This document shows, one piece after another, positions 3,256 through 57,245 of a stretch of DNA of 64,000 nucleotides. The notes beneath the pieces were generated by a model, which worked only from the letters and a program-made list of their open reading frames with translations, was not told where the DNA came from and did not search any database. The position numbers and the translations under genes are program-made. The stretch comes from Acidimicrobiia bacterium (GTDB taxonomy: Bacteria; Actinomycetota; Acidimicrobiia; Spongiisociales; ZC4RG35), in NCBI GenBank assembly GCA_040880725.1, contig JBBDHV010000039.1, positions 6,481-70,480 on the forward strand. Direction: 5' to 3'. Position 1 is the first letter of the stretch. Every line of letters starts with the position of its first letter.

Positions 3256-3633
3256 TCAGTCGGTGGCGGGGGTGGGGCGTTCGGCGCGGGCGAGGGATGC
3301 GAGGACGCCGTTGACGAAGCGTCCGGAGTGTTCGGTCGAGAACGCCTTCACGATGCGGACCGCTTCGTTGAGGACGACGGCGGTGGGGACATCGGGGCAA
3401 TGACGCAGCTCGAAGAGCGCGAGACGGAGGACCGCACGATCGACGACAGGCATGCGGTCGACGCTCCAGCGATCGGCCACGCGGTTGATCGAGACGTCCA
3501 ACTCGTCCCGATGTGCCATCACCCCGGTGGTCAGACGGAGCGCCCGCCCGACGAGGTCCGCCGGCGGCTCCCACGCTTCGACCTGATCGGCTTCGTACAG
3601 CTCTTGAACGGCCCGTTCGCGTGGTTCGGTCAC
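3256..3633 (-). CDS. nusB: Transcription antitermination factor NusB
   Basis: 125 aa with a NusB-like helical protein (LRLALFEL....NEAVRIVKAF). Downstream of efp as in actinobacteria. Confidence 0.85.
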   Translation of the reverse strand: MTEPRERAVQELYEADQVEAWEPPADLVGRALRLTTGVMAHRDELDVSINRVADRWSVDRMPVVDRAVLRLALFELRHCPDVPTAVVLNEAVRIVKAFSTEHSGRFVNGVLASLARAERPTPATD

Positions 3634-4187
3634 ACGCGGGTCAGATACTCGCCGGACCGGGTGTCCACCTTGATGCGGTCGCCCTGCTCGACGAAAAGCG
3701 GAACCTGGACGTCGATGCCGGTCTGGACCTTCACGAGTTTCGTCGCCCCTGAGACGGTGTTGCCCTTGACTGCCGGCTCGGCGTACGTGACTTCGAGCTC
3801 GACTGCCGCAGGGAGCTCGACGCCGATCGGATTTCCCTTGTGCATGGCGAGAACCACGGTCATGCCGTCGAGCAGGAACCCGGCCGCATCGCCCACGTCG
3901 ATGGCGCTGAGGGCGAACTGCGAGTAGTCCTCGAGGTTCATGAAGTGGAAGCCGAGGTCGTCCGAATACAGGAACTGGTGTTCGCGGCGGTCGATGAACG
4001 CCTGCGGAACGTCTTCGTCGGCGCGGAAAGTGCGGTCGAGAACCTGGCCGGTTTCGACGTTCTTGATCTTCATGCGCACGAAGGCTTTGCCCTTCCCGGG
4101 CTTGACGTGCTCGTACTGCACGATCGAGAACAACCCGTCGGGGAGATCGAGGGCCATTCCGGGGCGAACGTCATTGGTCGAAATCAT
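3630..4187 (-). CDS. efp: Elongation factor P
   Basis: 185 aa, MISTNDVRPGMALDL...KPGKGKAFVRMKIKN, with the conserved KPGKG loop. Confidence 0.9.
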   Translation of the reverse strand: MISTNDVRPGMALDLPDGLFSIVQYEHVKPGKGKAFVRMKIKNVETGQVLDRTFRADEDVPQAFIDRREHQFLYSDDLGFHFMNLEDYSQFALSAIDVGDAAGFLLDGMTVVLAMHKGNPIGVELPAAVELEVTYAEPAVKGNTVSGATKLVKVQTGIDVQVPLFVEQGDRIKVDTRSGEYLTRV

Positions 4188-13200: not shown

Positions 13201-14472
13201 TTACCCTTCGCGGACCCCGACGATACGTCCGATCTCGCCTTCCCAGGTGAGCACGTAGAGCTCTCCTTTCGAGTCCACCCCGAAGCTGTTGACCTGCCCC
13301 AGCCCTGTCAGCCATTCCGTGTGGTCGACGGCTGCGGAGCCGTCCCAGCGGAAGCTGCGCAACCAGCCGCCGCACCAATCGGAGTAGAGGTAGACGCCGT
13401 CCAACTCCGGTATCGCCGCACCCCGGTACACCCTGCCGCCCGTGATGGAGCACCCTTCGTCGTGGCTGTACTCATGGACGGGAAGCGTGAGATTCTCGGC
13501 GTCGGCATCACATCCCGATTGGAAGCATGTGGACGCTTCCATGCGGATCCACCCGAAATTCAGCCCCGGCTGGGACAGGGAAACGACGTTGATCTCTTCG
13601 AATCGTTCGTGGCCGACGTCGGCGATGTAGATGTCTGCTGTCGGCACATCGATCGCGAACCGCCACGGATTGCGCAGCCCGTACGCCCAGACTTCGGGAG
13701 CTCCCCCGCCTGCGACGAACGGGTTGTCCGCCGGGATCCCGTAAGGGTCGCCTGAGTCGACGTCGAGGCGCAGGATCGATGACAGGTGCGTCCCCGGATC
13801 CTGGGAGTGCACCGACGCCGCGCCTCCCTCACCGAGTGACAGGTACAGCATCGCGTCCGGCCCGAATTCGAGCATCCCCCCGTTGTGCCGCACGGTGGGT
13901 TTGTCGAAGGTCATCATCACCTGCTCGGTGTCCGGATCCACCGCGGCCCCGTCGGGGTCGGCGGTGAGTTCGACGAGCCGGGTGGTGTCCGCACCGTGGG
14001 AGTAGTAGGTGAAGATCCGTCCGTTCGTCTGGTATTCCGGGTGGAACGCCAGTCCGAGCAGCCCCTGTTCGATCCCTCCGGGATTCACTCGATCCCGGAG
14101 ATCGAGCCACGGTTCCTCACCGGGTGCGCCACTCGAGTCCAACTCCCACACGGCCCCGACGCGCTCGACCACGAACCGGCGATCGGATTCCGGCGGCGAC
14201 AGCAGGAGGACGGGTTGGCTCAACGCGTCGGTGACTGCCTCGATGGCGAGTCCGGTCAGCGGAGCCGGCGGCTCGGTCGTCGTCGTGGCGGCAGGCGTCG
14301 TCGTGGTCGTGGTCGGGGGTGCGGTCGTCGTGGGTGACGTGGTGGTCGGGGGCACCGTGGCGGTCGTGGGGGTTGCTTCGGTGGTCGTCACCGAGTCGCC
14401 GGCCGCGGTGCAGGCGGCCAGCGCGATGCAGAGCACCGAGAGGACTCGCGGGGGCGGCGTGCCGGCATTCAT
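13201..14472 (-). CDS. PQQ-dependent sugar (glucose/sorbosone) dehydrogenase-family lipoprotein
   Basis: Lipoprotein signal MNAGTPPPRVLSVLCIALAAC, then a Thr/Pro-rich linker and a beta-propeller with YGLRNPWRFAID and GLLGLAFHP motifs. The likely start is the internal ATG; the ORF-track start at 14709 is an Arg-rich extension. Confidence 0.7.
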   Translation of the reverse strand: MNAGTPPPRVLSVLCIALAACTAAGDSVTTTEATPTTATVPPTTTSPTTTAPPTTTTTTPAATTTTEPPAPLTGLAIEAVTDALSQPVLLLSPPESDRRFVVERVGAVWELDSSGAPGEEPWLDLRDRVNPGGIEQGLLGLAFHPEYQTNGRIFTYYSHGADTTRLVELTADPDGAAVDPDTEQVMMTFDKPTVRHNGGMLEFGPDAMLYLSLGEGGAASVHSQDPGTHLSSILRLDVDSGDPYGIPADNPFVAGGGAPEVWAYGLRNPWRFAIDVPTADIYIADVGHERFEEINVVSLSQPGLNFGWIRMEASTCFQSGCDADAENLTLPVHEYSHDEGCSITGGRVYRGAAIPELDGVYLYSDWCGGWLRSFRWDGSAAVDHTEWLTGLGQVNSFGVDSKGELYVLTWEGEIGRIVGVREG

Positions 14473-33134: not shown

Positions 33135-34247
33135 TCAGCCCGGGACACCATTCGCGCGCCGTTCGATGACGGTGTGATGATGATCTGTGAAAGTCCCCGC
33201 CGCTATCGCGGCACGGGTCTGGGCCATCAACCCCAGCGTGTAGGCGAGATTGTGGATCGACAGGAGCCGGAACACCGAGAGCTCTTTGGTGGACAGCAGA
33301 TGACGGAGATAGCTCCGGCTGACCTGGGAACACGCGAGGCAGGTGCACTCGTCGTGGAGGGGCCGCGGGTCGGCGCGGTACTCGGACCGCCGGAGGTTGA
33401 AGTCGCCGTCCGGGGTGAGCACCCGCCCGTGACGGGCGAGACGGGTCGGCCAGACGCAGTCGAACAGGTCACATCCCCGGGCGACCGCGGCGAGGACTCC
33501 CTCGGCATCGCCGAGGCCCATCACATACCGGACCCGGTCGGCGGGCAGCTCGGGCACCCCGGCCTCCAGCGCCAGATCCCGTTCCTCGGGGCTTTCGCCT
33601 ACCGACAACCCGCCGATGGCGTACCCGTCGAAGTCCAGCGCGGCGGTCTCTCGGGCGCTCCAGACGCGAAGATCAGGATCGGTTCCCCCCTGCACGATGC
33701 CGAAGAGCGCCTGATCAGGATTGGTGTGGACGTCCCGGCAGCGTTGCGCCCACCGCAGCGTCTGCTCGAGTGCCGCCTGCACGGCTTCCCGGGCAGCGGG
33801 CAGCCCGATGAGCACGTCGAGCACCATTGCCACGTCGGCACCGAGCAGCTGCTGGACCCGCATCGCCTCCTCCGGCGACAGGCGCACTTCGGACCCGTCG
33901 TAGGTCGATCGGAACACCGCCTCTTCTTCGGTGACCGTCGGATCCAACGAGAAGATCTGATAGCCGCCCGAGTCCGTGAGCGTCGGTCCGTTCCACCCCT
34001 GGAACGCGCCGAGACCCCCCATCGCCGCCACGGTCTCCGCACCCGGCCGCAGCATCAAGTGATACGTGTTGGACAGCACCATCTGGGCCCCCACCCCCGC
34101 CAGGTCCGTCGAGTCGAGCCCTTTCACCGCCCCCCGGGTCCCCACCGGCATGAACGCCGGCGTCTCCACCACCCCATGGGTGAGTTCCACGCTGCCTGCC
34201 CGCGCGTTCCCATCATTGGCGGTGACGACGAGTTCCGCGGTTCTCAC
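33135..34247 (-). CDS. tgt: Queuine tRNA-ribosyltransferase
   Basis: VETPAFMPVGTRGAVKG motif and the zinc site CxCxxC...H (CTCLACSQVSRSYLRHL). The start is assigned to the GTG just 3' of the repeat array. The ORF-track extension to 34532 reads through the tandem G-rich repeats and gives a repetitive PSGGCRGVAPPHNQ peptide. Confidence 0.85.
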   Translation of the reverse strand: MRTAELVVTANDGNARAGSVELTHGVVETPAFMPVGTRGAVKGLDSTDLAGVGAQMVLSNTYHLMLRPGAETVAAMGGLGAFQGWNGPTLTDSGGYQIFSLDPTVTEEEAVFRSTYDGSEVRLSPEEAMRVQQLLGADVAMVLDVLIGLPAAREAVQAALEQTLRWAQRCRDVHTNPDQALFGIVQGGTDPDLRVWSARETAALDFDGYAIGGLSVGESPEERDLALEAGVPELPADRVRYVMGLGDAEGVLAAVARGCDLFDCVWPTRLARHGRVLTPDGDFNLRRSEYRADPRPLHDECTCLACSQVSRSYLRHLLSTKELSVFRLLSIHNLAYTLGLMAQTRAAIAAGTFTDHHHTVIERRANGVPG

Positions 34248-34249
34248 TG

Positions 34250-34500
34250 TTTGATTGTGCGGGGGGGCGACCCCCCTGCACCCCCCGGACGGCGCGGCTG
34301 CCCTCGTCGGCTCACCGGGGGTCGCGCTCGATGACTCATGACGGTGGGTGGTCGCGGAGGTTTGGGTCGCTGCTTGATTGTGCGGGGGGGCGACCCCCCT
34401 GCACCCCCCGGACGGCTTGATTGTGCGGGGGGCGACCCCCCGGCACCCCCCGGACGGCGCGGCTGCCCTCGTCGGCTCACCGGGGGTCGCGCCCTGTGAC
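34250..34500. repeat. Tandem array of three copies of a palindromic G7-CGA-C6 hairpin repeat unit of about 105 bp. Copies one and three are full-length; the middle copy is truncated to about 42 bp.
   Basis: The core TTGATTGTGCGGGGGGGCGACCCCCCTGCACCCCCCGGACGG recurs at about 34250, 34376 and 34418. Copies 1 and 3 extend to ...CGCGGCTGCCCTCGTCGGCTCACCGGGGGTCGCG...GACTCAT(GA)C. Confidence 0.65.
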
Positions 34501-34583
34501 TCATCGTCTGGTCTGACGCGGGTGAGGACCACGGTGGGCGAAGCTGCGGGTTTGGCTGGCCACGCGACTCAGGAACTCTCCCG

Positions 34584-35586
34584 TCATGACTGGCGCTCGC
34601 AGAGCATGGCGTCTCCGAAGCTGAGGAAGCGGTAGCCGCGGGCGAGCGCCGTGTCGTAGGCGGTCTTCCATTCAGGTCCCATGAAGGCGGCGAGCATCAC
34701 GAGGAGCGACGATCCGGGGACGTGGAAGTTGGTGACGAGTACATCGACGACCCGGAAGGTACTCCCTGGCCGGAGGAACAGGTCGGTCTCGGTCTCGCCG
34801 GCGTCGACGGTTCCGTCGTCACGGGCGAAGGTTTCGAGGGTTCGGACCGTCGTCGTTCCCACAGCCACGACACGGCCGCCTCGCTGCCGGGTGTCGGCGA
34901 TGGCGTCCGCCGTCTCGTCGATGATCCTGCAGCGTTCGCGATGCATCACGTGGTCTTCGATGCGGTCGGCGGTGATCGGTCGAAACGTGCCGATCCCGAC
35001 TTCGAGTTCGACGGCGGCCCGCCGGATTCCCCGCTGCTGGAGACTGGCGAGCACCGCCGGGGTGAAGTGCAGTCCGGCGGTGGGTGCGGCGGCCGAACCG
35101 ACCCGGTCGGCATAGACCGTCTGATATCGCTCGGGGTCGTCGAGTTCTTCGGTGATGTACGGCGGGAGGGGCACCGTGCCGATCTCCTCGAGGTGGCGTT
35201 CGTCGTTGAACTCGACGGCCACCACGCCGTCGTCGGGGCCTTCGATGATGACCGCCTGGACCTCCCCGAAAGTGATGACGACTCCGGGACGCATCCTCCG
35301 GGCAGGCGACACCAGCGCCGTCCAGCCCCCCTGTGCTCGCCTCGAGAGCAACAGCAGCTCCACAGACCCGCCGGTGCCGTGTTTGGTTCCCCGCCAGCCG
35401 CGCTCGCCGCACGCGTGTCGTATTGACGACGACGAGGTCATCGGGGTCGAGCAGGGATGCCAGCGCCGAGAACTCGTGGTCAGCCAGATCCCGGGTGTCC
35501 AGCAGCCGGGCCGAGTCGCGCGGTTCGGCGGGATGTTGGGCGATGGACGCCGGCGCCAGATCGTACTGGAACTCCGACAGCTCCAT
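34584..35586 (-). pseudogene. queA: S-adenosylmethionine:tRNA ribosyltransferase-isomerase QueA with a single frameshift
   Basis: The N-terminal 66 aa ([29 protein letters not shown]...VVVNTTRVRRARLAG) are in one frame. The rest (GTKHGTGGSVELLLL...TNFHVPGSSLLVMLAAF...FLSFGDAML) is in the +1 frame. The switch is near 35385, around GGGGAACC. Both parts align colinearly with E. coli QueA. Confidence 0.7.
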
Positions 35587-45240: not shown

Positions 45241-46530
45241 ATGTCCGAGGTGACGATCCGTCACGGTGAAAAGGAGACGACCGTCCCGGTCGTCGAAGCA
45301 ACCGAGGGAAACAGCGGATTCGACATCTCGGCAGTCCGGGCCGACCTGGGTCTGGTGACCCTGGACCGCGGTTTCGGCAACACTGCCGAAAGCCCGAGCA
45401 CCGTGTCCTACATCGACGGCGAGGAAGGTGTGCTGCTGTACCGGGGTTACCCGATCGAGCAGTTGGCGGAGCACTCGAGCTTTCTCGAGGTGTCCTATCT
45501 CCTCAACTACGGCGAGTTGCCGACCGCCCATCAGCTCTCCGAGTTCGAGGAGTCGATCCGGCGCCACACCCTGCTGCGCGAGGACATGAAGTACCTGCTG
45601 GAGGCGTTCCCGCACGCAGCCCACCCGATGCAGATTCTCGCCTCGGGCGTTTCGGCGATGGCCACGTACTACCCCGACGCCCTCGATCCGAAGAACGAGG
45701 AGTCGGTCGACATTTCGGCTCGTCGCCTGATCGCCAAGGTTCCGACGATGATCGCGTTGGCGCACAAGTACAGCGTTCATCAGCCGGCGATGTATCCCCG
45801 CAACGACTTGGACTACACGGCCAACTTCCTGCACATGATGTTCGCCGTCCCCCCGGAGGACTACGAGATCGACCCCGTCGTGGTGAAGGCACTCGAAGTC
45901 TTGCTCATCCTCCACGCCGATCACGGCCAGAACTGTTCGTCCTCGGCGGTGCGACTGGTCGGCTCCGGGCAGGCCAACATCTTCTCGTCGATCTCGGCAG
46001 GGATCCACGCCCTGAGCGGCCCGCTGCACGGTGGCGCCAATCAGGCAGTGCTCGAGATGCTGCAGAAGATCACCGAGTCCGGCGACAGCGTGGACAGCTT
46101 CGTCAAGCGGGCCAAGGACAAGAACGACCCGTTCCGTCTCATGGGCTTCGGACACCGGGTGTACAAGAACTTCGACCCGAGGGCGAAGATCATCAAGCAG
46201 GCGGCCGCGGACGTCCTCGACCAACTGCACGTCACCGACCCGATGCTCGAAGTGGCGACGCAACTCGAGCAGGTCGCGTTGGAGGACGACTACTTCATCG
46301 AGCGCAAGCTCTACCCGAACGTGGACTTCTACTCCGGCATCATCTACCGGGCGATGGGTTTCCCGAACGAGATGTTCCCGGTCCTTTTCGCCTTGGGCCG
46401 CCTCCCCGGCTGGATCGCCCAGTGGCGGGAGATGAGCTCAGACCCGAAGGGCCGCATCTACCGCCCCCGCCAGGTCTACGTCGGTGCCCCCACCCGGGAT
46501 TACACCCCCATCACCGACCGAACTGCTTGA
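45241..46530 (+). CDS. gltA: Citrate synthase
   Basis: 429 aa type II citrate synthase with the conserved active-site region (HADHGQNCSS...GFGHRVY). Confidence 0.95.
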   Translation: MSEVTIRHGEKETTVPVVEATEGNSGFDISAVRADLGLVTLDRGFGNTAESPSTVSYIDGEEGVLLYRGYPIEQLAEHSSFLEVSYLLNYGELPTAHQLSEFEESIRRHTLLREDMKYLLEAFPHAAHPMQILASGVSAMATYYPDALDPKNEESVDISARRLIAKVPTMIALAHKYSVHQPAMYPRNDLDYTANFLHMMFAVPPEDYEIDPVVVKALEVLLILHADHGQNCSSSAVRLVGSGQANIFSSISAGIHALSGPLHGGANQAVLEMLQKITESGDSVDSFVKRAKDKNDPFRLMGFGHRVYKNFDPRAKIIKQAAADVLDQLHVTDPMLEVATQLEQVALEDDYFIERKLYPNVDFYSGIIYRAMGFPNEMFPVLFALGRLPGWIAQWREMSSDPKGRIYRPRQVYVGAPTRDYTPITDRTA

Positions 46531-46920
46531 TTGTGCGGGGGGGCGACCCCCCTGCACCCCCCGAACGGCGCGGCTGCCGGTGTCGGGGGTCACCTGCGGA
46601 CCCATTCCATGGCTCATGACGAGACATGATCGCGGAGGCCTGGAACGCGCGAGACGTCGCTGGCTATGAAGCGTCCTGGACCTCCGCCAGCAGATCTCGT
46701 CATGAGCCCTCGGGTGGACCCGCAGACAGACCAGGAATCGACGGCCGCGCCAAGCGGGGGGTGCCGGGGGGTTCGACCCCCTGCACAATTAAAGAGCGTC
46801 CCAGACCGCGTCGTGAAGGTTCGGTCATGAGTCATTGGGTGAATTCCCAGCCGAACGAGACCGTGCCAGCCGCGCCAAGCGGGGGGTGCCGGGGGGTTCG
46901 ACCCCCTGCACAATTAAGCA
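46526..46920. repeat. Cluster of three copies (one forward, two inverted) of the same G7-CGA-C6 hairpin repeat unit of about 105 bp, in the convergent gltA/ferritin intergenic region
   Basis: Forward copy CTGCTTGATTGTGCGGGGGGGCGACCCCCCTGCACCCCCCGAACGGCGCGGCTGCC...GGCTCATGACGAG at about 46526. Reverse-oriented copies end ...CGGGGGGTGCCGGGGGGTTCGACCCCCTGCACAATTAA at about 46800 and about 46917. Each is preceded by a (G)CTCATGAC-type motif. Confidence 0.65.
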
Positions 46921-47411
46921 GCTTGTCTTTGGCCGAGTTCCCGGTCGAGGAGGAGGAGTGCGCCGCCGTCGTCGCCGATCATCTTGAGTTGTTCGACGAT
47001 GTCCGAGACGATGGATTCCTCTTCGATCTGTTCTTCGAGAAACCATTGGAGAAGGGCGAAGCTGGCCGAGTCGCCGTCGGCGAGGGCGGCGGCGTAGAGA
47101 CCGGAGATGGCTTGGGAGACTCGCTGTTCCTGTGCGAAGGCGGTTTCGAACGCGTCGAGGACGGACTCGAAGTCGGTCTTGGGCGCCTCGCCGCCTCCGA
47201 GGCTGATCGTGTTGCCGCGATGGAGCACATGGTCGAAGAACTTCAGGGCGTGGGCACGTTCTTCTTCAGATTGGACCCGCATCCATTGCGCCATCCCCTG
47301 CAGGCTTCGGCTGTCGAAGTAGGCAGCCATCTGCAGGTAGGCGATCGATGATGCCAGTTCGAGGTCGATCTGGCGGTTGAACTTCTCAGCGAGTGAATCG
47401 GACATTCTCAT
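46914..47411 (-). CDS. Ferritin (non-haem, Ftn-like)
   Basis: Ferroxidase di-iron ligands in LELASSIAYLQMAAYF...EEERAHALKFFDH...LEEQIEEE. The start is assigned to the internal ATG (MRMSDSLAEKFN). The upstream extension is Pro/Ser-rich and runs into the repeats. Confidence 0.8.
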   Translation of the reverse strand: MRMSDSLAEKFNRQIDLELASSIAYLQMAAYFDSRSLQGMAQWMRVQSEEERAHALKFFDHVLHRGNTISLGGGEAPKTDFESVLDAFETAFAQEQRVSQAISGLYAAALADGDSASFALLQWFLEEQIEEESIVSDIVEQLKMIGDDGGALLLLDRELGQRQAA

Positions 47412-53070: not shown

Positions 53071-53559
53071 TCAGTCGTCCGACTCGTCGGTGGGCCACTT
53101 ATTGAACGTCACCAGCGGCAAGTAGAACCACGACCAGACGGCCAACAGGGCGGTGGCGGACAGCACGATCGCCGCGCCGGTTGAGCCGAGCCGCACCGAA
53201 GCCACCAGATAGGTCGATGCCACGATCGCAACCAGGAAGCTGACAGTGCCGGCGACGGTGAGTGCCACTGCCACCGTCACGTGCTCGGGGGAACGTCGCG
53301 GGATCCCCGTCATGAGCCCCCGGACTCGCTGATGGACGCTGGGGGAGATCAGCAGGATGGCGGCGACGGCGGTGGAGAGGAACGCGACCGCGTAGGTGAA
53401 GCGGTCGATGGTGGCAATCTCGGCGAAGTCGGACTGGAACGGCAGCGCAAGGAGAAAACCGAACAGCACCGTCACCCCGGGGATCGTGGTGCGCAGGCCT
53501 TCCATGAGCGCCCGGAACTGGTCATCGGCGCTGACATTTGTCGACTTCGTGTCGTTCAT
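53071..53559 (-). CDS. Hypothetical membrane protein (162 aa)
   Basis: Four hydrophobic helices. No recognised catalytic motif. Confidence 0.45.
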   Translation of the reverse strand: MNDTKSTNVSADDQFRALMEGLRTTIPGVTVLFGFLLALPFQSDFAEIATIDRFTYAVAFLSTAVAAILLISPSVHQRVRGLMTGIPRRSPEHVTVAVALTVAGTVSFLVAIVASTYLVASVRLGSTGAAIVLSATALLAVWSWFYLPLVTFNKWPTDESDD

Positions 53560-55236: not shown

Positions 55237-55821
55237 ATGAGTGAGTACACATCCTCGACCGCCCTGGTGGTGGTCGACGTCCAGAACGACTTCGCCGACC
55301 CGAAGGGGAACCTGTTCGTCTCCGGCGGCGACGAGGTCGTGGCAGTCTGCAACGCCGAGATCGTCCGCGCCTTGGCCGCCGGCTCGTTCGTCGTCTACAC
55401 CCAGGATTGGCACCCGGAGTCCACACCGCATTTCCAAAAGGACGGTGGGGTGTGGCCCGTGCACTGTGTCGCAGACACCTGGGGTGCGGAGTTCCATCCC
55501 CGCCTGGTCCTCGCAGGACCGACCGTGCGGAAGGGTTCCAACGGTGAGGACGGCTACTCCGGGTTCACGATGCGCGATCCCGAGTCCGGGGAGACCACCC
55601 CGACCGCCCTCGAGTCGCTTCTGCGGGAACGTGACATCACCGACGTCGTGGTGGTCGGATTGGCTTTCGATGTCTGTGTGAAGGCCACCGCCCTCGACGC
55701 CAACCGTCTCGGTTTCCCGACGACCGTGATCCAGGCTGCCAGCGCCGCGGTGGAACTCGAAGCAGGCGACACCGAACGCTCCGAGGTCGAACTCACCGCG
55801 TCGGGTGTCACGCTGAACTGA
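55237..55821 (+). CDS. pncA: Nicotinamidase / pyrazinamidase (isochorismatase family)
   Basis: VVVDVQNDF, catalytic Cys (AFDVCV) and the metal-binding His/Asp pattern. Divergent from pncB (NAD salvage pair). Confidence 0.85.
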   Translation: MSEYTSSTALVVVDVQNDFADPKGNLFVSGGDEVVAVCNAEIVRALAAGSFVVYTQDWHPESTPHFQKDGGVWPVHCVADTWGAEFHPRLVLAGPTVRKGSNGEDGYSGFTMRDPESGETTPTALESLLRERDITDVVVVGLAFDVCVKATALDANRLGFPTTVIQAASAAVELEAGDTERSEVELTASGVTLN

Positions 55822-57108: not shown

Positions 57109-57245
57109 CACCGCCCCTCGACGCCAACCGACTCGGTTTCCCGACCACCGTGATCCAGGCGGCCAGTGCCGCGGTGGAACTCGAAGCAGGCGACACCGAA
57201 CGCTCCGAGGTCGAACTCATCGCGTCGGGCGTCAATCTGCGCTGA
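57109..57245 (+). pseudogene. Displaced 3'-terminal fragment of pncA. It forms a 137-bp imperfect direct repeat of 55685-55821.
   Basis: About 92% nucleotide identity to the pncA 3' end. It stays in frame, encoding LDANRLGFPTTVIQAASAAVELEAGDTERSEVELIASGVNLR*. Five of eight codon differences are synonymous. It has no 5' part or start codon. Confidence 0.6.

Follow-up and report, generated by a model that had tools for sequence, protein, structure and literature searches.

What is the G/C-rich palindromic sequence that lies in several head-to-tail copies between queA and tgt of an Acidimicrobiia bacterium, and how could an operon tolerate it? We analysed a stretch of 64,000 nucleotides (nt) of contig JBBDHV010000039.1 (assembly GCA_040880725.1), called the window below, to which all bare coordinates refer; loci fetched for comparison carry L numbers. 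Our reading, held with a probability of about 0.6, is that the sequence belongs to a family of ~100-125-bp non-coding structured interspersed repeats of Acidimicrobiia, mobile or formerly mobile and similar to mycobacterial interspersed repetitive units (MIRUs), tuberculosis rho-independent terminators (TRITs) and repetitive extragenic palindromic (REP) elements. Such repeats would provide a 3'-end hairpin at gene ends and would be translated through when they lie in operons.

A hairpin repeat with a conserved core

At the queA/tgt junction, the segment 34248-34583 (+) is a head-to-tail array of three tandem units extended by a degenerate tail (Table 1). A preliminary description made from the sequence had proposed three tandem copies with a truncated middle one, placed within an operon, and this is what the array shows. 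The complete unit A1 measures 123 nt and not the ~105 bp first given. The order of elements in a unit is a left end (C)TG(C/T)TTGATTGTGC, the hairpin GTGC-G6/7-CGA-C6-(T/G)-GCAC (hereafter P1), a second C6 tract, a variable body and the motif (A/G)TGACTCATGAC, which is followed in A1 by the tail GGTCGCGGAGGTTTGGGTCGC. The strings originally quoted for the unit, CTG(C/T)TTGATTGTGC, TGCGGGGGGGCGACCCCCCTGCA followed by CCCCCCGG, and GACTCATGAC, are all present, but the unit does not end there and runs ~30 nt further to GGTCGCGGAGGTTTGGGTCGC. Unit A1 abuts the tgt start codon (reverse complement of 34245-34247), and P1 of unit A3 is a G6 variant in which G replaces T before GCAC. The arrays of L042 and L044 share with the degenerate tail the string GTGGCCAGCCAA, which they have in their leader. 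The search pattern suggested at the outset gives 4 matches against 0.06 expected in shuffled sequences, none of 100 shuffles reaching four, and a profile search with the core of the unit finds exactly six copies in the 64-kb window, distributed over two loci.

The second locus, 46522-46921, consists of three units between the convergent genes for citrate synthase (gltA) and ferritin. Three more copies had been announced at 46.5-46.9 kb and all three are there, but only B1 has the same orientation as the first array, B2 and B3 being inverted. The tails of B1 and B2 form a 55-nt imperfect inverted repeat with 75% complementarity. Citrate synthase has 427 amino acids (aa) and ends in ...R in about 110 of 120 homologues. 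In the window and in L047 it has 429 aa and ends in ...DRTA beside ACTGC(T/G)TGA-TTGTGC, and in L048 it has 428 aa and ends in ...ERG beside GGTTGA-TTGTGC; TGATTGTGC adjoins the extended gene in all three. The gltA gene of L046, which has no element, ends in AGG TAG, 13 nt before the convergent gene. Since the longer citrate synthase ends are found beside the element and most homologues have the 427-aa form, we conclude that the element supplies the last codons and the stop.

The same comparison showed differences in gene content. L046 (3784-3800), from a close relative, has no ferritin gene, and gltA lies 13 nt from a convergent gene of 157 aa; the window (46530-47411), L047 and L048 have the ferritin gene with repeat units on its 3' side. 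In L048, at ~4005-4040, a single hairpin, TTTGTGCGGGGGGGTCGTACCCCCGCACAATCA, is used head-to-head by the gltA array and by ferritin: it closes the forward array that comes from gltA, and its opposite strand is the TGA-TTGTGC stop context of the ferritin gene.

The core, TRA-TTGTGC-G6-(R)CGA-C6-K-GCAC-C6-G, is a nearly invariant module of 32-36 nt. It is found exactly in 40 further loci (12 loci in 7 GTDB species genomes and 28 metagenome contigs), which establishes the dispersed family of palindromic hairpins that the preliminary description had supposed. The hosts of the 12 genome loci are all Acidimicrobiia or 'Actinomycetota' metagenome-assembled genomes (MAGs). No exact core was found among viral contigs, and blastn of unit A1 gave no match in plasmid and phage collections. 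When 68 cores are compared, including those in contigs of relatives, GTGC and GCAC are fixed, the sole exceptions being two variants with TTGC in the 5' arm. The loops are mostly GCGA or ACGA, the latter in ~40% of the cores outside the window, with insertions or deletions of 3, 4 or 5 nt between copies, and one stem position exists in two linked forms, G..T (~42 cores) and A..G (~16 cores), neither of which is Watson-Crick. T(T)RAT is kept directly 5' of the hairpin in most copies. The flanking bodies are of at least three unrelated types, and the periods are between 39 and 161 nt long.

The hairpin P1 contains 11 pairs, including one G-U; its folding energy is -22.3 kcal/mol (z -5.5) for the forward strand and -20.0 kcal/mol for the reverse strand, in agreement with the strong G-C palindrome noticed at first sight. 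Downstream of the hairpin, one strand reads C6 and the opposite one AAUCAA. No T-run follows it on either strand and the cores are not listed in a terminator scan, so the initial view that this is not a classical terminator holds; canonical terminators are not enriched in the region either (11 versus 8.5 +/- 3.0 expected). RNAalifold on a MAFFT alignment gives P1 as the only helix, without covariation because this helix never varies.

A second helix, P2, in which the C-tract and 2-6 variable nt would pair with a downstream G-run, was also considered. Apparent compensatory changes are seen in window-type units (GG/CC, GA/TC, GC/GC) and in L037 (GACCGG/CCGGTC), and the scripted comparison with shuffles gave 65 versus 40 +/- 7, a value reached by 1 of 500 shuffles. 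As part of this signal comes from the next core in arrays, and as RNAalifold gives P1 alone, P2 is not claimed as established.

An Rfam scan of the whole window at gathering thresholds found no family, and permissive scans of both loci returned sub-threshold noise only (Clostridiales-2, a miRNA family and guanidine-II at 14.9 bits). A literature search with the core strings gave one irrelevant match, and nothing was found on Acidimicrobiia together with REP.

Placement at gene ends and coupled junctions

Neighbouring genes were called by codon-position GC and checked with Pfam. In the forward orientation, the TRA directly 5' of TTGTGC is the stop codon of at least seven unrelated genes, among which are gltA and the ferritin gene (three genomes each) and the genes for an HNH endonuclease, an amine oxidase, RpiB and an HTH-M78 regulator; the forward hairpin begins 6 nt past the stop codon. 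In three further genes, one of them that for glutamate dehydrogenase, the stop is 3-6 nt further upstream of TRA, and the core stands 8-15 nt after tRNA-Ile and tRNA-Leu. Most forward copies are located between convergent genes, and those at tRNA ends are forward as well. Between co-directional genes the element is reversed in seven locus types (queA/tgt, rpsJ/rplC, pheS/pheT, hpf to response regulator, asd to rhodanese, M24 peptidase to methyltransferase, and upstream gene to rhomboid) and forward in two, and no array was found between divergent genes among the loci examined. The elements settle only within or at the ends of transcription units. The neighbouring genes have no common functional theme, and the element is therefore not a gene-specific riboswitch.

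The queA/tgt junction was then compared among genomes whose Tgt is 86-88% identical to that of the window. In L045 the site is empty and the queA TGA overlaps the tgt GTG as GTGA, with AGGA six nt before the tgt start codon. The window carries three units at this site, L044 five near-identical 117-nt units of the same family in the same reverse orientation, and L042 and L043 carry 289 nt of a different C6/G6 hairpin repeat. Copy-number variation of the variable-number tandem repeat (VNTR) type, which had been anticipated, is thus visible at one junction as 0, 3 or 5 units. QueA ends in ...CER(N/S)L where the core family is absent (the empty site of L045 and the other repeat of L042), in ...CERQS in the window and in ...CERQR in L044. 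At rpsJ/rplC a 21-nt stretch of the S10 3' end is duplicated on the flanks of the insert, and this duplication keeps the S10 C-terminus together with the Shine-Dalgarno sequence and GTGA start of L3. Since one and the same junction is empty, filled with three or five units, or occupied by another hairpin repeat in close relatives, the best reading is that the elements are mobile now or were so formerly and that the tandem arrays expand and contract.

The repeat of L042 and L043 represents a second hairpin family, (T)GTCCCCCC-N16-18-GGGGGGAC, often preceded by TGAT. Its sites are L042 9890-9990, L009 ~3430-3475, L010 ~500-565 and L040 ~100-140; it replaces the core family at queA/tgt in L042 and L043 and accompanies it in three other loci.

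In the window the genes around the first array, ruvA, ruvB, queA, tgt, yajC and secD, are all on the minus strand, the array lying between queA and tgt; it is therefore antisense to the operon transcript, and the hairpin strand originally described is not the one transcribed here. The tgt start overlaps the stop of a small open reading frame (ORF), ORFb, as GTGA and has no Shine-Dalgarno sequence upstream, while the ORFb ATG overlaps the stop of ORFa as ATGA. The suspicion that the array makes the ORF caller lengthen tgt by about 95 codons proved right: the 465-aa ORF is an artefact, because NCBI annotates the identical Tgt of an Acidimicrobiia MAG with 370 aa, and over 100 homologues are ~370 aa long (368-375).

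The queA gene of the window itself carries an extra base at ~35394-35396 (-), GGCT-G-GCGGGG, relative to three close relatives. The frame of its first ~65 codons is that of ORF 34819..35586, and the remainder is read in another (34584..35441). The same base is present in an identical Logan contig, and it could reflect a real pseudogene or an assembly error. An exact RuvB match was found on a single 2.5-kb contig that ends inside queA, and no tRNA or tmRNA was found in the window.

Every coupled junction examined is spanned by a chain of small ORFs in which each NTG overlaps the preceding TGA. In the window the chain reads queA, ATGA, 28 codons, ATGA, 86 codons, GTGA, tgt. At queA/tgt of L044 it has 47 + 145 codons, and in L042, with the other repeat, 98 codons. 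The chains at rpsJ/rplC have 34 codons (L038), 34 + 34 + 23 codons (L005) and 34 + 22 codons (L026), and the one at pheS/pheT has 71 codons (L028). In six cases the insert was shuffled with its length kept, and a complete chain arose by chance in 8.8%, 3%, 13%, 48%, 9% and 30% of trials, which gives ~4e-6 for all six together. Small overlapping ORFs as in MIRUs had been noted from the start, and they do overlap the flanking stop and start codons; the term 'pseudo-ORFs' used for them fits less well, as the chains look selected and not incidental.

We also considered a unit length that is a multiple of 3 as a rule. It is found at coupled junctions (123, 42, 117 and 102 nt), and other reversed arrays have 83, 85, 134 and 161 nt; because not all reversed arrays comply, such a rule is not general.

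Together, these placements suggest two modes of action. In the forward orientation the element's own TRA becomes the stop codon of the upstream gene, with the hairpin of -22 kcal/mol close behind it, and this hairpin would most likely serve as a U-less 3'-end structure, that is, as a barrier to 3' exonucleases or as an aid to pausing or termination, roles that have also been suggested for REP elements and TRITs. The functions considered in the preliminary description, mRNA 3'-end stabilisation or DNA gyrase/REP-type binding, are likewise putative. In the reversed orientation the element would occupy the NTGA stop/start overlaps of the coupled pairs queA/tgt, rpsJ/rplC and pheS/pheT, where ribosomes could translate through the repeat, melt its hairpins and re-initiate at the downstream gene. 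At queA/tgt, tgt without its own Shine-Dalgarno sequence would depend on this hand-over. We infer read-through by ribosomes because the NTGA chains bridge coupled junctions and because tgt lacks a Shine-Dalgarno sequence; insertion into operons would then be tolerated through translation of the bridge, as in mycobacterial MIRUs.

Some loci have further features. In two MAGs (L001 3557-4066 and L010 1-402) an HNH endonuclease gene ends in the TTGA of the element, a glutamine synthetase gene follows, and small TTGA- or ATGA-linked ORFs span the gap. In three loci with the core between hpf and a response-regulator gene, raiA-motif RNAs (RF03072, 146-149 bits) are found upstream of hpf/raiA (L012 1436-1705, L019 5671-5940 and L024 2195-2464), and ~300 nt of unassigned structured sequence with two more G6/C6 hairpins lie between. 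A signal recognition particle RNA suspected by eye downstream of hpf in L019 and L024 was not confirmed by Rfam.

The window holds other repeated sequences as well. A cluster of G5/C5 runs at 53287-53345 with CCCGTCATGAGCCCCCGGAC resembles the unit tail motif GTCATGAG and may be a fragment or a coincidence. Tandem Repeats Finder reports a GTCGTGGTCGTGGCGGCAGGCGTC-like tandem repeat at 14275-14352 (period 24-30 nt, 2.3-2.5 copies). A 131-nt direct repeat, 92% identical, at 55691-55821 and 57115-57245 corresponds to the 3' ends, stop codons included, of two apparently paralogous genes 1.4 kb apart.

Table 1. Repeat units, cores, bridging frames and adjacent genes, with their positions in the window
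Feature	Position	Strand	Remarks
tgt, 370 aa	33135..34247	-	GTG start at 34247
ORFb, 86 codons	34244..34504	-	spans all three units on the operon strand
Unit A1, 123 nt	34248..34370	+	left end TGTTTGATTGTGC, P1, C6 tract, body, CTCATGAC, tail GGTCGCGGAGGTTTGGGTCGC
Core of A1	34257..34286	+	P1 GTGC-G7-CGA-C6-T-GCAC, then C6 tract
Unit A2, 42 nt, truncated	34371..34412	+	left end, P1 and C6 tract only
Unit A3, ~98 nt	34413..34510	+	left end, P1, C6 tract, body up to GTGACTCAT
Equivalent cores	34380-34409, 34423-34451, 46533-46562	+	correspond to the core of A1
Degenerate array tail	34511..34583	+	runs to the queA stop codon; contains GTGGCCAGCCAA
ORFa, 28 codons	34501..34587	-	ATG overlaps the queA stop (ATGA)
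queA	34584..35586	-	ends ...CERQS(stop); 1-nt insertion (frameshift) near 35395
gltA (citrate synthase)	45241-46530	+	
Unit B1	46522..46650	+	left end ACTGCTTGA gives the last two codons (TA) and the stop of citrate synthase
Unit B2	46670..46794	-	inverted; TCGAA-loop variant
Unit B3	46795..46921	-	inverted; left end GCTGCTTAA gives the ferritin stop codon
Equivalent cores, second locus	46756-46785, 46881-46910	-	correspond to the core of A1
Ferritin gene	46914-47411	-	

Known repeats and competing explanations

One close parallel is with MIRUs, whose defining feature, according to Supply et al. (1997) as summarised in PMC3184786, is that their ORF ends overlap the flanking stop and start codons. 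As described in that summary, MIRUs are tandem units of ~40-100+ bp, intergenic in polycistronic operons, with G/C-rich inverted repeats, empty and filled sites, copy-number variation and small ORFs overlapping the flanking stop and start codons; arrays or single units of this kind are found here at queA/tgt, rpsJ/rplC and pheS/pheT. On the same basis, the present units differ in being longer (102-125 nt), in having a 32-nt hairpin that is invariant across species and combined with different bodies, in having copies at the 3' ends of terminal genes and tRNAs where they give the stop codon, in a second locus between convergent genes, atypical of MIRUs, and in a host class that is Acidimicrobiia and not Mycobacterium. 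The element works like a MIRU rather than being a member, its host being an Acidimicrobiia MAG.

TRITs, the closest precedent for the forward copies, are a conserved palindromic motif with 147 copies, located at about -8 relative to the stop codon, for which a dedicated factor was suggested on account of this conservation (Gardner et al. 2011, PMC3152330). The element shares with them a palindrome of conserved sequence without U-tract, usable in both directions and held tightly at the stop codon in an actinobacterial lineage poor in canonical terminators. A TRIT reaches ~8 nt into the coding sequence; in the present element the left end of the motif includes the stop codon. In contrast, TRITs are reported only in Mycobacterium, with 147 copies per genome against two loci in 64 kb of the window and hosts that are Acidimicrobiia or Actinomycetota MAGs, and tandem arrays or a second C-tract are not described for them. 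The terminator function of TRITs is itself doubtful, as later work found a U-tract to be required by mycobacterial polymerase (PMC3993855) and few mapped 3' ends at TRITs, U-less 3' structures possibly stabilising RNAs or marking processed 3' ends (bioRxiv 10.1101/2022.06.01.494293). For these reasons a 3'-end barrier or pause is favoured here over true termination.

With REP sequences and bacterial interspersed mosaic elements (BIMEs) the repeat has in common a short imperfect palindrome in extragenic transcribed DNA, clusters in both orientations (B1 versus B2 and B3) and a proposed protection of the upstream mRNA. It differs by the absence of a GTAG or CGTC tag, its foot being (T)TRAT-TGTGC, by the fact that no REP-associated tyrosine transposase (RAYT) was found in the window or the 48 loci, by 70-90 nt of extra body, by head-to-tail rather than mostly alternating copies, and by a core that is shared across species where REPs are usually species-specific. 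By host, it belongs to none of MIRU, TRIT and REP, which are its closest known analogues; the classification first proposed is supported.

Several points weigh against the explanation as an interspersed repeat. Neither the window nor the 48 loci yielded a transposase or recombinase in a search of limited sensitivity, and no clean target-site duplication or terminal inverted repeats could be defined, the 21 nt at rpsJ/rplC being the sole clear flanking repeat. A core that stays identical from one species to the next is not what selfish REP-type families usually show, and selection by the host for a function would explain it no less well; the copy density is low, with two loci in 64 kb and none in the related contigs L042, L045 and L046 (6-21 kb). 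NTGA chains are absent from the reversed copies at the uncoupled asd-rhodanese, M24-HTH65, rhomboid and hpf-response regulator sites, and because queA is frameshifted in this genome, coupling from queA may not operate here. Finally, translation of the bridging ORFs and a role at RNA 3' ends are both deduced from the sequence.

As the main rival, we consider it possible, though rather unlikely, that the hairpin is instead a 3'-end or termination motif selected by the host, as Gardner et al. suggested for TRITs. A conserved factor (RNA polymerase together with NusG or Rho, or else a protein that binds RNA) would read the hairpin and the C-tract beside the stop codon and would make or protect transcript ends. 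At least seven species genomes and 28 metagenome contigs share an identical 32-nt core between diverging flanks, and the stem position that is kept as G..T or A..G is what a recognition feature would look like. The very narrow placement at stop codons and after tRNA genes, the absence from divergent regions, the avoidance of the forward orientation within operons (7 reversed versus 2 forward) and canonical terminators that are not enriched (11 versus 8.5 +/- 3.0) point the same way, and TRITs share these features, including the position near -8 from the stop (PMC3152330). However, neither strand has the U-tract required in vitro by mycobacterial polymerase (PMC3993855), few mapped 3' ends fall on TRITs (bioRxiv 10.1101/2022.06.01.494293), arrays of 3-5 units and presence/absence polymorphism are not required of a terminator, and many copies (queA-tgt, rpsJ-rplC, pheS-pheT) are antisense to the only plausible transcript.

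Also improbable, and more so, is a REP-like element or palindrome-associated transposable element (PATE) moved as single-stranded DNA by an HUH/Y1 transposase (RAYT or the TnpA of IS200/IS605) and inserted 3' of TTGAT or TRAT. ISDra2 inserts 3' of TTGAT, and most copies have the conserved T(T)RAT directly before the hairpin. The imperfect hairpin with one conserved non-paired position and the lack of terminal inverted repeats agree with such an origin, and head-to-tail arrays are expected if the end of the element recreates the target. Against it, no Y1 transposase was found in the window or the fetched loci, a phmmer search of limited sensitivity with IS200 and IS608 TnpA sequences giving nothing at E<5 in 3003 ORFs (window and 48 loci), and inverted cores on both sides of a transposase gene were not seen either. 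The hairpin also begins 1 nt after the putative target, closer than IS608-type ends, and the GTAG or CGTC tag of known REPs is missing. As for a PATE derived from IS200/IS605, the hairpin and the 5' T(T)RAT are present, the right end of the element is not cleanly defined, and the 21-nt flanking direct repeat does not fit.

The orientation bias between co-directional genes would also be accounted for by an outward promoter in the reversed element, with CACAAT (reverse complement of ATTGTG) as a -10-like hexamer driving the downstream gene, and we regard this as very improbable. The hexamer keeps A2 and T6, lies 6-27 nt upstream of the downstream start codon, and its spacing to tgt would give a leaderless transcript, but it lacks the T1 of the actinobacterial TANNNT consensus, has no -35 or extended -10 element, and is not found by a promoter scan, and the NTGA chains argue for coupling over new transcription. 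Even less credence is given to hairpins of the guanidine-II (mini-ykkC) type, in which paired stems with ACGR loops dimerise on guanidinium and regulate a neighbouring gene. An ACGA loop on a G5-6/C5-6 stem does occur in the ~40% of outside cores mentioned above, and the array with a 39-nt period in L018 reaches 32.2 against a gathering score of 32 (RF01068). The window loops are however GCGA and UCGAA with a best score of 14.9 bits versus 32, the other ACGA arrays do not score, and the GTGC/GCAC clamp and the C6 tract are not in the riboswitch. The copies are at gene 3' ends or antisense rather than in 5' leaders, a single hairpin is all that many loci contain, and no guanidine-related gene was found among 40 Pfam-scanned flanking proteins or the flanking genes identified from ORFs and homologues; tgt, rplC, pheT, gltA, ferritin and rpiB are among the neighbours. 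The L018 match probably belongs to a false-positive class, the resemblance being confined to the hairpin. The array concerned (L018 5-107, -) is a pure core array with ACGA loops right after tRNA-Leu.

There remains a protein-coding origin, in which the repeats would form either a repetitive N-terminal part added to Tgt (PSGGCRGVAPPHNQ x3) or a repeat peptide that is functional. No stop codon interrupts the tgt frame over 95 more codons and a 183-aa ORF is annotated across the L044 array, but all three frames are open across the core simply from G/C richness, the core occurs in both orientations and after tRNA genes, and Pfam finds nothing in such ORFs. Since loop indels of 3, 4 and 5 nt shift the frame between copies, and since Tgt homologues have 368-375 aa and the identical NCBI protein 370 aa, this origin is effectively refuted and its probability negligible.

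Meaning for annotation and for the family

An interspersed repeat of this kind has practical consequences. It corrupts annotation, as seen in the lengthening of tgt by 95 codons, in the 183-aa 'gene' called across the L044 array and in one array that passes the guanidine-II threshold. Arrays found at the very end of contigs (e.g. L002, L014 and L018) suggest, by this position, that they may break short-read assemblies. On the other hand, the variable arrays offer VNTR-type markers for strain typing of uncultured Acidimicrobiia.

What distinguishes the element is the combination, in one unit, of a hairpin that is invariant across the class, the donation of a stop codon, VNTR-like arrays and bridges at coupled junctions that appear to be translated. 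A bolder view, which we hold only tentatively and think unlikely as it stands, is that of a miniature mobile element adapted to stop codons and NTGA junctions. One of its sides would provide a stop codon and the other an open frame ending in overlaps, and in this way it could colonise essential coupled operons (rpsJ/rplC, pheS/pheT, queA/tgt). The invariance of the hairpin across species points to a specific partner, and under this view the class-wide invariant 32-nt hairpin would imply a conserved protein, either a new type of transposase or recombinase or a factor that connects translation termination with the formation of RNA 3' ends. The family unites traits that have been described separately in Mycobacterium, namely the conserved stop-anchored hairpin of TRITs and the translated intercistronic arrays of MIRUs, and its empty and filled junctions are natural before-and-after examples of how such a repeat may enter a 4-nt stop/start overlap without breaking translational coupling.

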